A DNA stretch of 64,000 bases from Planctomycetota bacterium (GCA_029259775.1 JAJDEN010000026.1:60059-124058); one strand, 5' to 3'; positions 4,644-38,353 are shown, counted from the first letter of the stretch. Notes: generated by a model not told the origin, from the letters alone. A program made the numbers and translations.

Positions 4644-5489
4644 ATGAGGGCATGCATCGCAGGTCTGGGCGTGACGTTGGCGCTGGGCGCGGCGTTGGCG
4701 CTGGGGGCGTGCCGCGCCCGCCTCGCGGACGTCATGCCCGACCAACTCGATGCCGGCGCCGGCAGCACGTCGGCCGCACCCAAGCCCAAGGCGGCCACCT
4801 ACGGCCCGGGTGCCCAGCCCGGAGGCGCGACCAAGCCGGGCGGCTTCGTACCGCGCGGCTCCATGCGCAACTTCTACGCCGGAGCGCGTGGTCGCCTTTG
4901 GTACTACATGAACAACTACTACTGGGTGCCGCCGAAGTCGCCGCCCCGCGGCCTCTGGATCAAGGCCGATGTCATCGAGAAGTTCAGCGACCTCCGCACG
5001 TGGCCCGATGGCAAAGCCGTCACCGGACCGGCGCCGAAGACGACCGTCGAGTATTGGGAGGTCGGCAAATCCGGTCGCACGGTGTGGGTCGACAACCACA
5101 AGGACTTCCTCCTGCTGGCCGACCACTACACGGCCGGCGCCATCTCCGTCGACGTCACGCTGACGCTCGGACGTCTGATGGTGAAGAACAAGAAGGAGCA
5201 CTGGGCCTATCCCGAGGAGCCCTACATCCTCGAGGATCGCAACTACCGCAAGGACCGCGGCATTGGCGCTGCGCGCACGCGTTTCGAGCCGCTCGCCACG
5301 GAGGCGATCACGGTGTGGTCCTACACCGTGCCGTGGAACACGCACCCCCAGCGCCTCACCCGCAGCAACTGGAAGCGCATGAAGCTGCCCTCGTGGAAGC
5401 TGGTCGCGCGCACGCCGCCGCGTCCGGCGCCGGCCCGTCCCGCGACGCCGGTGACATCGGTCTCGCCAGGGCCGAGCTCCGGGCCGTAG
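4644..5489 (+). CDS. Lipoprotein, hypothetical (Trp/Tyr-rich)
   Basis: Internal ATG at 4644 gives MRACIAGLGVTLALGAALALGACRARL (lipobox LGAC). The body shows strong GC3 with AAG/GAG codons (WYYMNNYYWVPPKSPP...). Confidence 0.6.
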   Translation: MRACIAGLGVTLALGAALALGACRARLADVMPDQLDAGAGSTSAAPKPKAATYGPGAQPGGATKPGGFVPRGSMRNFYAGARGRLWYYMNNYYWVPPKSPPRGLWIKADVIEKFSDLRTWPDGKAVTGPAPKTTVEYWEVGKSGRTVWVDNHKDFLLLADHYTAGAISVDVTLTLGRLMVKNKKEHWAYPEEPYILEDRNYRKDRGIGAARTRFEPLATEAITVWSYTVPWNTHPQRLTRSNWKRMKLPSWKLVARTPPRPAPARPATPVTSVSPGPSSGP

Positions 5490-6284: not shown

Positions 6285-6719
6285 ATGACAAGCGAAGACG
6301 TCGAGCGCATCCTCGCCGAGTTGACGGCCATCCAGGACGCGCCCGCGCTCGACGCGCTCTCTCTTCGGCGAGCCCGATCGCTGGTCGGCCACGCCGACAA
6401 CGACGTCCGCTGGCAGGCCCTGATTGCCGTCGGGAATTGGATCTGGACCGACCCGGAGCCCGTCTGGGAGGTCGTGCTCGAACACGGCGAGAGCGAGGAC
6501 GAGGACATGCGCACGGGTGTCGCCACGGTCCTCCTGGAGCATCTGCTGGAGCACCACTTCGACGCCTACTTCCCCCGCGTGCGCGAGCGCATCGAGGCGG
6601 GCGCGCCCCTGATGAAGGAGACGCTCGGCATGTGCGGGAGGTTCGGGCTCAGTCAGGACCGGTGGGCGGAGCTATGCCGCATGAGCGGCCAGGCGTGGAA
6701 GTTGGACTTGGGTTCGTAG
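6285..6719 (+). CDS. Hypothetical protein
   Basis: 144-aa ORF with GC3 >90%, directly downstream of the HEAT lipoprotein. No recognisable motif. Confidence 0.5.
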   Translation: MTSEDVERILAELTAIQDAPALDALSLRRARSLVGHADNDVRWQALIAVGNWIWTDPEPVWEVVLEHGESEDEDMRTGVATVLLEHLLEHHFDAYFPRVRERIEAGAPLMKETLGMCGRFGLSQDRWAELCRMSGQAWKLDLGS

Positions 6720-15347: not shown

Positions 15348-15424
15348 TGGTCGGGGCGAGAAGATTCGAACTTCCGACCTCCTGCTCCCGAAGCAGGCGC
15401 GCTACCAAGCTGCGCTACGCCCCG
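15348..15424 (-). tRNA. tRNA-Pro (anticodon CGG), CCA encoded
   Basis: Reverse complement: CGGGGCG UA GCGCAGCUUGGUAGCGC G CCUGC UUCGGGA GCAGG AGGUC GGAAG UUCGAAU CUUCU CGCCCCG A CCA. 7-bp acceptor stem, D-arm, anticodon loop UUCGGGA (anticodon CGG), T-loop GGTTCGAAT-like, discriminator A. Very similar to E. coli tRNA-Pro(CGG). Confidence 0.85.
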
Positions 15425-35014: not shown

Positions 35015-36217
35015 ATGCGCACCCTCACATTGATCTTCGCTCTCCTCTTCGCGGTCGGCTGCGGCTCCAGCATCGGGGCCCTCCTCAGCAACCAGGTACT
35101 GCTCTTCGCGACGTTCCAACCCATGACGTATCAGCTCGGCCAGCCGAGCTTCACGTCGGGCACCGCGAACCAAGGCAACGCGAATCCGTCCGCGACGTCG
35201 CTTCGGTTCCCGGGCGCGGGCATGGCAGGCGGTACCAACTTCTACGTACCCGACGCGGGCAACAACCGCGTGCTGGGCTACACGAGCGTGCCCAATGTCT
35301 CGATGCGGGCCGCCGACTTCCCGATCGGTCAGGCCACCCTCGCCACCGCCGCGACGGGGACGTCCTCGGGCGCGATGAACAACCCCCTCGCCCTATGGGC
35401 CACGAGCTCGCACCTGTTCGTGAGCGACACGGGCAACAACCGCGTCCTCATCTTCGCGGGTGCGCCCGTGAGCTCGGGCTCGACGGCCAGCTTCGTGCTG
35501 GGCCAGACGGGCTTCGGGCTGAACGGCACGGGTGGGACCGCCACGACGATGGACAGCCCGGTCGGGATCTGCAGCGCGAACGGCAAGCTGCTCGTCTGCG
35601 ATCGCGACAACAACCGCGTGCTGATCTGGAACTCGATCCCGAGCGCCAACGGCGTGGCGGCGGACCTCGTCTTGGGGCAGGCGAATCTCTCGAGTGTGCT
35701 GCCCAACCGTGGGGCTACCCCCGCGGCGAACACGCTGAACTGGCCGTGGGGCGTCTGGACCGACGGCACGATCGTGGCGGTCGCCGACGCGGCAAACCAT
35801 CGCGTGCTGATCTGGAACTCGTTCCCCACGACGAACGGCCAGCCGGCGGACGTGGTGTTGGGTCAAGCCGGCTTCACGACGTCAGGGGCCGGTCTCACGG
35901 CGACGTCCTTCAACGTGCCGACGGACGTGACGTCGAACGGGATCCAGCTCTTCGTGGGCGACTGCGAGAACAACCGCGTCCTCCTCTGGGACACGTTCCC
36001 GACCGTCAACCAGGCCGCGCCGAACAAGGTGCTTGGTCAGGGTGACTTCACGCACGGCCGCCAGAATGACGACGACCAGAACACGGTGGACGACGGGCAG
36101 CCCTCGCAGCGGACGCTCAACAGCGCAGGTGGCTTCCTGTTCGTCCGTCTGGACCAGAGCAATCTGTTCGTCGGCGACCACCGCAACCACCGCGTGGGCA
36201 TCTGGCGCGGCAACTGA
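35015..36217 (+). CDS. NHL-repeat beta-propeller lipoprotein (paralog of 27653-28879)
   Basis: MRTLTLIFALLFAVGCGSS lipobox. Repeated DxGNNRVLIW...LGQ blades. Divergent from the CHAT gene. Confidence 0.75.
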   Translation: MRTLTLIFALLFAVGCGSSIGALLSNQVLLFATFQPMTYQLGQPSFTSGTANQGNANPSATSLRFPGAGMAGGTNFYVPDAGNNRVLGYTSVPNVSMRAADFPIGQATLATAATGTSSGAMNNPLALWATSSHLFVSDTGNNRVLIFAGAPVSSGSTASFVLGQTGFGLNGTGGTATTMDSPVGICSANGKLLVCDRDNNRVLIWNSIPSANGVAADLVLGQANLSSVLPNRGATPAANTLNWPWGVWTDGTIVAVADAANHRVLIWNSFPTTNGQPADVVLGQAGFTTSGAGLTATSFNVPTDVTSNGIQLFVGDCENNRVLLWDTFPTVNQAAPNKVLGQGDFTHGRQNDDDQNTVDDGQPSQRTLNSAGGFLFVRLDQSNLFVGDHRNHRVGIWRGN

Positions 36218-36227
36218 GCCGCTGACT

Positions 36228-36475
36228 CTTCAAGAAGAGAAGAAGACCAACCACAGAGGCACAGAGGACACGGAGGGCCGCAGGCGACCATGCGCGGTGT
36301 TTCACGTGCGCTCGTCGTTGGCTCTCAAGAAGCAAGGAACCGCAGAGGCGCAGAGGGCCAACCCGTCGCTCGGGGGCCGCGCACGAGGCTTCTGCTCCTC
36401 AGACTCAGCCGATCGCACTTCGAGCGCCAAGCCTGATCAGAGGCACACCTCTGTGTCCTCTGCGCCTCTGTGGTT
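36228..36475. mobile_element. MITE-like element: ~40-bp terminal inverted repeats flanking a ~170-bp non-coding core
   Basis: Left end caagaagagaagaagaccaaccacagaggcacagaggacac (36231-36270) is the near-perfect reverse complement of the right end gtgtcctctgcgcctctgtggttcaattctcttctcttgg (36447-36486 region). It lies between the convergent NHL and typA genes. No ORF. Confidence 0.45.
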
Positions 36476-36520
36476 CAATTCTCTTCTCTTGGGGCCTGCA
36501 GCGTGCGCGCGTAGCTCGAG

Positions 36521-38353
36521 CTACTTCTTGCCCGACTCGGCGTTGCGGCGGCGGCGGATCTCCTTGCGGCGCAGGACCTCCTTGAGCACGCGCTTGCGCA
36601 TGCGCAGGAAGTTCGGCGTCACCTCGAGCAGCTCGTCATCCGCCAGGAACTCGAGCGACTCCTCGATGCCCTTGCGGATCGGCGGCGGGAACGACGCCTT
36701 CTCGTCCGTGCCGGACGAGCGGACGTTCGTGAGGTTCTTGCGGCGGCACACGTTGACGAGGCACTCCTCGTCACGGCGATGCTCGCCCGTCACCTGGCCT
36801 TCGTAGACCTGCTCGCCGGCGTCGACGAAGAACGGGCCACGGTCCGTGAGACCGTTCAGCGCGTACGCCGTGACCATGCCGGCCTCGCTCGACACCTGGC
36901 TTCCCGTGCGGCGGTGGGGGAGCTCGCCTCGGTGCTTGCCGTAGCGCTTGAAGACCGAGCTCAGGACCGCTTCGCCCTTCGTCGCCGAGAGCAGGCGCGT
37001 GCGCAAGCCGATCAGGCCGCGCGACGGCGCCTCGAACTCGAGGAGCGTGAGGTCGCTCTTCGTCTCCATGTTGAGCATCTCGCCCTTGCGGCGGCCCATC
37101 ATCTCGATGACCGTGCCGGCGTCGACCGCGGGCACTTCGACGTGCACCGTCTCGAACGGCTCTTCGAGGCCCTCGTCCGTCTCGTGAAACAGCACGCGCG
37201 GGCGGCCGACCGCGAACTCGAAGCCTTCGCGCCGGAGCGTCTCGATGAGGATGCCCAGGTGCAGGATGCCGCGGCCGCGGACCTCGAAGGCATCCGTCGC
37301 CTCGCCGAAGAGCACGTGCAGGGCCACGTCTTCCTGGTGCGCGCGCTCGAGGCGCTCGCGCAGGCGGCGGGACGTGACGTGCTTGCCGTCCTCGCCGGCG
37401 CGCGGTGAGTCGTTGACGCGGAACTCCATGGCGAGGGTCGGCTCTTCGACCTTCATCTCCCAGGGCTCGACGGGGTCTTCGATCGACGTGATCGTGTCGC
37501 CGATCTCGACACCCTCCATGCCACCAATGGCGACGCAGTCGCCCGCCGTGACGTGCTCCGTCTCCGTACGGCCCATGCCCGAGAAGACGAACGGCGTCGC
37601 CGGTACCTTCGCGCGCACCGTGCCGTCGGGCGCGAGGATGAGCAGACGATCGCCGCGGGCGATCTTGCCCTGCTCGAGGCGGCCGATGGCGATGCGACCC
37701 ACGAAGCGATCCACCTCGACATCGCAGACCGGCAGCGCGAGCGGGAGCTCCGGGTCGCCCCGGGGCGGCGGGACGTGCTCGAGGATGCCGTCGAGGATCG
37801 GCAGCAGGTTGGGCTGCAGGGCGTCGGGCTCGAAGCCGGAGATGCCCTGGCGGCCCGAGGCGTAGAAGACGGGGAAGTCGAGGTCCTCGTCCTCGGCACC
37901 GAGATCGATGAAGAGGTCGTAGACGAGGTCGAGGACTTCCTTCGGACGCGCGTCACGGCGATCGCACTTGTTGATCACGACGATGGGCTTCAGCTTGCCC
38001 TCGAGCGACTTGCGCAGCACGAAGCGCGTCTGCGGCAGCGGGCCTTCGTAGGCGTCGACGAGCAAGAGCACGCCGTCCGCCATGCGCAACACGCGCTCGA
38101 CCTGGCCGCCGAAGTCGGCGTGGCCGGGCGTGTCGATGATGTTGATCTTCTTGTCCCGGTACTGGATGGCGCAGGACTTGGAGAAGATGGTGATACCGCG
38201 CTCGCGCTCGAGGTCGAAGCTGTCCATGACGAGGGCTTCGTCGTCGGGCAGGGAGCCCAGGACACCTGCGGTCACGAGGAGCTTGTCCACGAGGGTGGTC
38301 TTCCCGTGGTCCACGTGGGCGATGACGGCGACATTTCGTACGTTTTCGTTCAT
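36521..38353 (-). CDS. typA: Translational GTPase TypA/BipA
   Basis: [12 protein letters not shown] (G1), DTPGHADF (G3), NKCD (G4), then EF-G-like domains. Start at ATG 38353 ([13 protein letters not shown]...). The ORF-track 671-aa version has an N-terminal extension. Confidence 0.9.

Follow-up and report, generated by a model that had tools for sequence, protein, structure and literature searches.

A gene-less palindromic element between an NHL-repeat protein gene and typA is probably a member of a cassette family whose arms bracket GxxExxY nuclease genes

The window analysed here, a stretch of DNA of 64,000 nucleotides, carries a gene for an NHL-repeat protein and the typA/bipA gene in convergent orientation, separated by a gap of 303 nt that is mostly filled by a palindromic element of 261 bp (about 36231-36491). 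The stop codon of the NHL gene lies 13 nt before the element, and that of typA lies 29 nt past it. Homologues of TypA place the DNA in an uncultured Planctomycetota lineage, the best full-length match being 87% identical, and a tRNA-Pro (CGG) at 15348-15424 (-) was the sole RNA gene detected in the 64 kb. The features of the locus, with E values from a profile of arms that flank GxxExxY genes (described below), are as follows.

35015-36217, + strand: gene for an NHL-repeat protein with a lipoprotein-like N-terminus (Pfam PF01436, E=9e-16)
36231-36248, + strand: outer tail of the left arm, purine-rich, CAAGAAGAGAAGAAGACC, mirroring 36476-36491
36249-36276, + strand: left arm, AACC + ACAGAGGC + ACAGAGGA + CACGGAGG; exact core match, profile E=4e-3 over 64 kb
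36277-36324, no strand: interior segment 1, non-coding, containing TGTTTCACGTG; no likeness to other copies
36325-36337, + strand: copy of the arm tail before the internal arm (direct repeat D6)
36338-36358, + strand: internal third arm, AACC + GCAGAGGC + GCAGAGGG, two units; profile E=0.04
36359-36437, no strand: interior segment 2, non-coding and unique by blastn and six-frame hmmsearch
36438-36447, + strand: fragment of a fourth arm, CAGAGGCACA, adjoining the right arm (inverted repeat I15)
36448-36475, - strand: right arm, the reverse complement of AACC + ACAGAGGC + GCAGAGGA + CACAGAGG; best profile match in the window, E=2e-4
36476-36491, - strand: outer tail of the right arm, pyrimidine-rich on the + strand (caattctcttctcttg), mirroring the left tail
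36521-38353, - strand: typA/bipA gene (Pfam GTP_EFTU and BipA_C)

The two inverted arms (36249-36276 on the plus strand and 36448-36475 on the minus strand) are 28 nt long and identical at 26 of 28 positions. Each consists of AACC followed by three 8-nt units of the form CRCNGAGG, namely ACAGAGGC, [A/G]CAGAGGA and CAC[G/A]GAGG, the two mismatched positions being R in unit 2 and N in unit 3. A 23-nt core, AACCACAGAGGC[A/G]CAGAGGACAC, was found at 36249-36271 (+) and 36453-36475 (-), with no further copy in the 64 kb and none in 100 shuffles, confirming that the terminal inverted repeats described in an earlier note on this DNA are real. That note had placed the left repeat at 36231-36270; its sequence is as described, and its real end lies one base further on, the string caagaagagaagaagaccaaccacagaggcacagaggacac spanning 36231-36271. 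The element itself was correctly recognized as an inverted repeat between the NHL gene and typA, but its right end, given as 36475, lies at about 36491, because the purine-rich tails prolong the symmetry. A long hairpin is predicted for both strands, with energies of -149.2 and -146.8 kcal/mol (z = -4.7 and -3.6, respectively).

The related motif that had been noticed in the interior proved to be a third arm (36338-36358) in the same orientation as the left one, with the string AACCGCAGAGGCGCAGAGG at 36338-36356 and 95% complementarity to the right arm (inverted repeat I2). A copy of the arm tail (TCAAGAAGCAAGG, as compared with TCAAGAAGAGAAG) comes before it. With the fragment that adjoins the right arm, the window thus holds three and a half arms, which would be the record of a duplication or of nesting. 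The interior also contains, at 36289-36300, the string GTGTTTCACGTG, which matches one half together with the middle of parS, a widely conserved site (TGTTTCACGTGAAACA); since the second half is absent, this likeness is probably a coincidence.

The closest TypA relatives (87-94% identity) showed no synteny with the window locus downstream of typA, and therefore provide no empty site for the window copy. In the nearest of them (L121, 2218-2300; L122, 3284-3394; and L120) the gene downstream of typA is not the NHL-repeat gene, and the corresponding spacer of L122 contains a short tandem repeat, cggcccacgg x3. The differing downstream gene and this repeat therefore indicate that the typA junction has been rearranged within the lineage. 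The typA reading frame of L120 is truncated at 499 aa. No arms were present in 19 kb from the nearest relatives, and the 64-kb window itself holds a single locus.

Copies of the arms were sought in one genome per species (596 Gb) with the 19-mer AACCRCAGAGGCRCAGAGG, which was matched exactly on more than 119 contigs from more than 10 phyla (at least 119 contigs listed), as compared with about 17 matches expected by chance, by our own arithmetic, for a 19-mer with two R positions. The matches came from Cyanobacteria, Planctomycetota, Acidobacteriota, Myxococcota, Chloroflexota, Alpha-, Beta- and Gammaproteobacteria, Verrucomicrobiota, Bacteroidota, Spirochaetota and others, those listed for Myxococcota being five loci in four Sorangium genomes plus one in a Chondromyces MAG. 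Conservation extended beyond the searched 19-mer to a third unit, an A/G-rich continuation and a (t/a)TTG or ACG just before AACC, and AG-rich tails precede the arms in the Sorangium and Planctomycetia copies as they do in the window. Arms lie at hundreds of intergenic sites in many phyla, so that the earlier note's fallback of a unique long hairpin, to be adopted if no other copies existed, no longer applies.

Among the loci listed, an inverted partner was found 20-220 nt away in 58 cases, with a shared layout of [t/g][a/c]ACC-(RCAGAGGN)x2-4, a variable interior and (NCCTCTGY)x2-4-GGT[t/g][c/a]. The interiors were unrelated between taxa by blastn, and that of the window matched the other loci solely through its internal arm. 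Two copies on a Sulfuricella contig (L022) have a partly common interior, and some genomes carry several copies within 6-8 kb, or arrays of them (L064 and L098). The copies listed are tightly packed between genes, the spacers being convergent in 13 cases, tandem in 20 and divergent in 12, and no preference for terminator contexts was seen among them. All-against-all blastp of the 712 ORFs beside the listed arms, called heuristically, returned generic families only, and the intervals between distant arm pairs contained ordinary genes or an unrelated IS5 fragment and no transposase. Searches of Rfam 15 gave nothing for the element at gathering or permissive thresholds.

Two observations concern other repeats found at these loci. 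In four Nostocales loci (L005, L020, L044 and L045), a single arm lies inside an inverted-repeat element of approximately 95 bp with the ends AGGACTTACGCA ... TGCGTAAGTCCT, which looks like a separate Nostoc MITE, captured or inserted beside an arm. In a Rhodocyclales MAG (L026), the interiors of two gene-less hairpins (4938-5009 and 6312-6413) hold REP-like palindromes, e.g. GTAGGTCGGG...CCCGAC, which suggests nesting of different repeat families.

In one of the loci retrieved through the arms, from a Planctomycetia MAG (L021), the arms lie 413 nt apart around a 118-aa ORF that encodes a GxxExxY protein (TIGR04256, E=6e-44; PF13366, PDDEXK_3, E=2e-41). Homologues of this protein are 70-75% identical across phyla, and the family comprises 22,392 representatives at 50% identity. 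We took 80 metagenomic GxxExxY loci with their flanks, 73 of them with enough flanking sequence, and in 55 of these 73 the inverted repeat bracketing the gene exceeded that of all 20 shuffles, with an arm-to-arm gap of 380-460 nt. The full cassettes (417-600 bp, mostly 430-455 bp) end in TTCACC...GGTGAA, or the variant TGAACC, and consist of a 5' arm, a PD-(D/E)XK gene of the GxxExxY family coding for about 118 aa, and an inverted 3' arm, each arm being made of the terminal TTCACC/TGAACC followed by approximately three 8-nt direct repeats, CRCNGAGN. Cultured Sphingomonas, Gemmatirosa and Bernardetia show the plan as well, and variants of it were observed: the cassette of Sphingomonas parapaucimobilis, between fabD and fabG, has the unit variant CGCGAAG; Bernardetia has an AT-rich version of the arms; in Gemmatirosa a complete gene-less hairpin comes after the GxxExxY gene; and in three loci (L125, L158 and L215) the gene lies between two complete hairpins, not two single arms. 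Four other loci (L164, L168, L172 and L183) have a second, inner inverted repeat of another kind between the ORF and the outer arms, e.g. ...TTGAGAGGACGGAAAGCAAAAAA....

The arms have also left their mark on predicted proteins. Around a quarter of these start with MN[HR]R[GD][TA]E[AT]QR, which is the arm AACCACAGAGGCACAGAGGCACAGAGA translated in frame, and some end in ...SASPRLCGE, the translated 3' arm. Examples are the proteins P0121-P0240 and P0361-P0373, in which gene callers often ran the GxxExxY frame through the arms and produced spurious N- and C-termini (MNHRGTEAQR... and ...SASPRLCGE). In addition, two GxxExxY matches occur in some proteins of around 270-295 aa, perhaps from tandem cassettes called as one ORF.

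In the GxxExxY proteins the D..ExK and QxxxY motifs are invariant and the RecB/Cas4-type active site is intact; together with a confident AF2 model (pLDDT 92.8), this makes the predicted nuclease look functional. No solved structure matching it by sequence was found. The nuclease gene shares the orientation of its upstream neighbour in 46 of 56 loci and that of its downstream neighbour in 40 of 51. Its start codon can overlap the stop codon of the host gene (ATGA), and a few bases separate the end of the 3' arm from the start codon that follows. Because of this co-orientation and the overlap of start and stop codons, the gene appears to be expressed by read-through, and so to ride on host transcription. 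No obvious carrier emerged from phage and plasmid records: no GxxExxY gene was found in phages, and only eight plasmid records contained one, most of them large replicons that reach 1.6 Mb.

The same arms also enclose a gene of another kind. In Nodularia sp. UHCC 0506 (L025, 3540-4520) they flank a 248-aa Uma2/DUF820 gene (PF05685, E=9e-16) and read cgAACC-GCAGAGG-CGCAGAGG-ACGCGGAG ... CTCTTTGTG-TACTTTGCG-TACTTGGCG-GTTcg. Uma2 is a PD-(D/E)XK nuclease family distinct from GxxExxY, and because of this locus the arms may carry nuclease genes of different kinds and may represent a platform independent of GxxExxY.

To place the window copy in relation to these cassettes, we built a profile exclusively from 119 arms flanking GxxExxY genes and searched it over the 64-kb window. 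The profile found exactly the three window arms (E values of 2e-4, 4e-3 and 0.04) and nothing else below E=3; since it was made from gene-flanking arms and is independent of the original retrieval, this result places the window arms in the family. We defined the family by inverted arms made of a terminal (T)TCACC or (T)GAACC and at least two CRCNGAGN units, with a GxxExxY gene between them. The window has such arms and no such gene: six-frame profile searches of the element and the rest of the 64 kb detected neither a GxxExxY gene nor a remnant of one, in keeping with the earlier description of the interior as non-coding, and the nuclease link of the window copy is therefore drawn entirely from its arms.

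Because these arms match those that bracket GxxExxY genes in more than 10 phyla, the window element probably belongs to a widespread palindromic cassette family, as a copy without the gene. We class the feature as a small selfish palindromic element, and the family as a whole would be selfish, travelling with its nuclease from genome to genome and across phyla. The copy in the window would either have lost its gene in place or have been copied as a gene-less hairpin. It is most likely passive now. As its arms are nearly undamaged and it lies where two convergent genes end, it may plausibly serve in a secondary way as a hairpin for the 3' ends of both transcripts.

Gene-less hairpins are the majority form of the family, since the 119 arm-selected loci listed (835 kb) contained 111 profile-level arms and one GxxExxY gene, that of L021. 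Comparisons of the same site in different genomes showed how such forms are distributed. In Sulfotelmatobacter-like Acidobacteria, a single spacer between a carboxyltransferase gene and an HMG-CoA lyase gene exists in three states: a full cassette (L213 and L177), a hairpin of 82 nt whose units have decayed (L203-L212) and a 36-nt remnant, TTCACCACGGA-N14-TGGTGAA (L214). At the conserved operon junction of fabD and fabG, S. parapaucimobilis (L216; YK209, 880-kb plasmid) carries a cassette and S. paeninsulae (L218) has a plain 33-nt spacer, the pair being approximately 71% identical. To judge from these sequences, fixed sites gain or lose cassettes, and gene-less hairpins can be the remains of cassettes, the same-site comparisons not giving the direction of change in every case. 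The empty spacer of S. paeninsulae contains cattcTGAActttt, a TTC..GAA motif like the joined ends TTCAC/GTGAA, which in this single sequence pair is a possible hint at the target.

The variation of the arms was then considered at the level of their units. The two arms of one element agreed at 6.57 of 8 variable positions, as compared with 4.61 when partners were permuted (10 sd), an agreement that could come from shared descent, not selection. Successive units within one arm agreed as well (AA 65, GG 44, AG 9, GA 12; p=1e-13), with a similar outcome in a second set (70/58/4/5; p=2e-23), and this is not explained by hairpin pairing alone. The free fourth base of the unit often differed between the two arms of an element, and mismatches between arms were of the G.U type in 68 cases on the sense strand and 77 on the antisense strand, showing no strand bias. 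Since all units evolve in concert, with C.C.GAG invariant and one base unconstrained, selection for RNA pairing alone would account for the pattern less well than iterated protein-recognition sites or homogenization of repeats.

No strand-transfer enzyme was found. Strand transfer is beyond a lone nuclease, which cannot transpose by itself, so that a homing-like route would be the most economical one for the cassettes, and we regard nuclease-driven, homing-like spread as possible, though on the doubtful side. By this route the nuclease would recognize the iterated units, or a hairpin or cruciform formed by them, and would cut at or near the arms or the hairpin; host repair would then copy the cassette with the arms serving as homology, and the spread of the cassette would resemble that of a free-standing homing endonuclease gene. 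On a broader scale, we tentatively propose, with a confidence somewhat short of even, that the arms and the GxxExxY nuclease constitute an unrecognized class of mobile element: a palindromic cassette of approximately 440 bp without transposase, integrase or reverse transcriptase, which occupies intergenic positions within operons, including the essential fabD-fabG, is expressed by read-through, has reached more than 10 bacterial phyla and is copied, when triggered by its nuclease, into sites or hairpins defined by the units, leaving gene-less hairpins behind.

The relation between arms and gene could also be the reverse, the hairpin being the primary repeat, the nuclease genes secondary homing invaders and the window copy a landing pad that was never occupied. 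The great excess of gene-less hairpins (111 arms and one GxxExxY gene in 835 kb) agrees with this, as do the Uma2 gene between the same arms and the three loci in which the gene lies between two complete hairpins. However, Uma2 is a single case, the acidobacterial same-site series gives no direction of change, and the empty fabD-fabG site is without any hairpin, so that arms and gene came together, or a hairpin came first and left no trace. We consider this explanation rather unlikely, and a gene-less copy of the cassette remains our preferred reading of the window element.

A more clearly unlikely explanation is that the window element is an RNA hairpin that functions for the host, as a bidirectional terminator, a 3'-end stabilizer or an RNase III site, and has been kept for that function. 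Its position between the convergent NHL and typA genes, the folding of both strands (z = -4.7 and -3.6), the U/C-rich tails that follow the hairpin on both strands and the near-intact state of its arms (26/28), as compared with the decayed L203 hairpin, would all suit such a role, and the 23S intervening sequence of Coxiella is alike in size, with a 28-bp stem and an RNase III cut (PMC4990558). However, a terminator scan found no site at the element, copies occur alike in convergent, tandem and divergent spacers among those listed, and the typA genes of the relatives have no hairpin. Moreover, there is no excess of G.U mismatches on the sense strand (68 vs 77), the units within an arm co-vary in a way not required by pairing, and no Rfam family corresponds to it. 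A role at the RNA level, whether in RNase III processing, termination or stabilization, is possible within the selfish cassette that we prefer, the two being compatible.

The earlier note had called the element MITE-like, which holds for its shape alone. As a classical MITE, it would be an internally deleted insertion sequence mobilized in trans by a DDE or other transposase, and its terminal inverted repeats, small size, non-coding interior and membership of an intergenic multi-copy family, like the interior partly shared by the two Sulfuricella copies, are what would be expected of one. However, no target-site duplication, the check proposed at the time, was found in the window (where the flanks are inverted, not direct), at 58 gene-less pairs or at 53 full cassettes. 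No transposase was present in the element, as already noted, or between or beside the arms of the loci examined, no protein family recurs in the neighbourhood, the interiors of different copies are unrelated, and the only recurrent enclosed gene, carried by the full relatives, is that of a nuclease. These results make a MITE very improbable. More improbable still is a REP/REPIN-type repeat kept by a RAYT (IS200-like Y1) transposase, for although the copies are extragenic palindromic doublets without duplication, tightly packed between genes and sometimes clustered or in tandem arrays (L064 and L098), their heads are AACC/CACC and not GTAG/GTGG, no Y1-like family recurs among the 712 neighbouring ORFs of the listed loci, the arms bracket a nuclease gene and their sequence is common to more than 10 phyla, REPs being lineage-specific.

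Several other identities were rejected: an intrinsic (Rho-independent) terminator (negative scan at the element; mixed U/C tails with no U tract), an integron attC site (the ends TTGAACC...GGTTCAA have C where RYYYAAC ... GTTRRRY needs R, and the neighbours are housekeeping genes), a tRNA T-loop (GGTTCRAAT; the stem is unpaired, and GGTGAA or GGTTAG also occurs as the end), a sigma-54 or ECF promoter (unsuitable spacing), the 16S rRNA 3' end (only 8 nt in common), a 23S rRNA intervening sequence (the window copy lies between protein-coding genes, and there is no rRNA in the window), and a DGR, a CRISPR repeat or IS ends (no match known).

A cassette family of this kind is apparently undescribed. 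The literature that could be searched, which is incomplete, so that earlier knowledge is possible, contained no description of the arms or of a link between them and GxxExxY; GxxExxY, PDDEXK_3 and PF13366 received passing mentions only, and the arm strings returned nothing related. We know of no role for GxxExxY/PDDEXK_3, annotated as it is in thousands of genomes. A 2012 survey lists the GxxExxY family as of unknown function, with 'multiple transfers' (PMC3424549). The fixed, repeat-built arms give this family a testable substrate and a likely selfish lifestyle. They also account for an intergenic repeat that is near letter-identical in cyanobacteria, planctomycetes, myxobacteria, acidobacteria, Chloroflexi and others, and for the recurrent false N-terminal extensions (MNHRGTEAQR...) in predicted proteins. 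If spread driven by a nuclease without a recombinase were true, it would perhaps be a new way for DNA to move, and the cassettes would offer a compact, sequence-specific pair of nuclease and site of possible practical use. The window copy taken alone is most likely a passive relic of modest importance, and it exposes a large cross-phylum family.

When the cassettes were compared with known systems, the closest described analogue was found in the 23S intervening sequences of Coxiella and Leptospira (PF05635). That of Coxiella is a selfish element of 428 nt with one small ORF; its terminal stem measures 28 bp, and RNase III cuts it (PMC4990558). Like these, the cassettes are selfish elements of about 430 nt with complementary termini of approximately 28 bp and one ORF of about 120 aa, sporadic in occurrence, horizontally spread and tolerated inside essential transcription units. 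Unlike them, the cassettes lie between protein-coding genes (0 of 40 cassette loci overlapped rRNA), encode a PD-(D/E)XK protein in place of a four-helix bundle and have arms of iterated 8-nt units, and the window copy lacks the ORF.

With MITEs such as Correia/NEMIS and Nezha, the gene-less copies share their shortness, the lack of coding sequence, terminal inverted repeats, intergenic location and a number exceeding that of the gene-bearing form; they differ in having no target-site duplication, a parent without transposase, termini common to many phyla and unrelated interiors. Similarly, they resemble REP, BIME and REPIN sequences in being palindromic and extragenic, packed between genes without duplication and sometimes arranged in arrays of alternating orientation, and are unlike them in having no RAYT and no GTAG head, in not being lineage-specific and in their association with a nuclease. 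Finally, the cassettes resemble free-standing homing endonuclease genes, including that of the PD-(D/E)XK enzyme I-Ssp6803I, in consisting of a lone small nuclease gene that is present or absent at fixed sites, with signs of a cycle of invasion, decay and loss and rampant transfer between distant taxa. They are unlike these in that no intron or intein is involved and the gene, for a predicted nuclease, is bounded by inverted repeats of its own.
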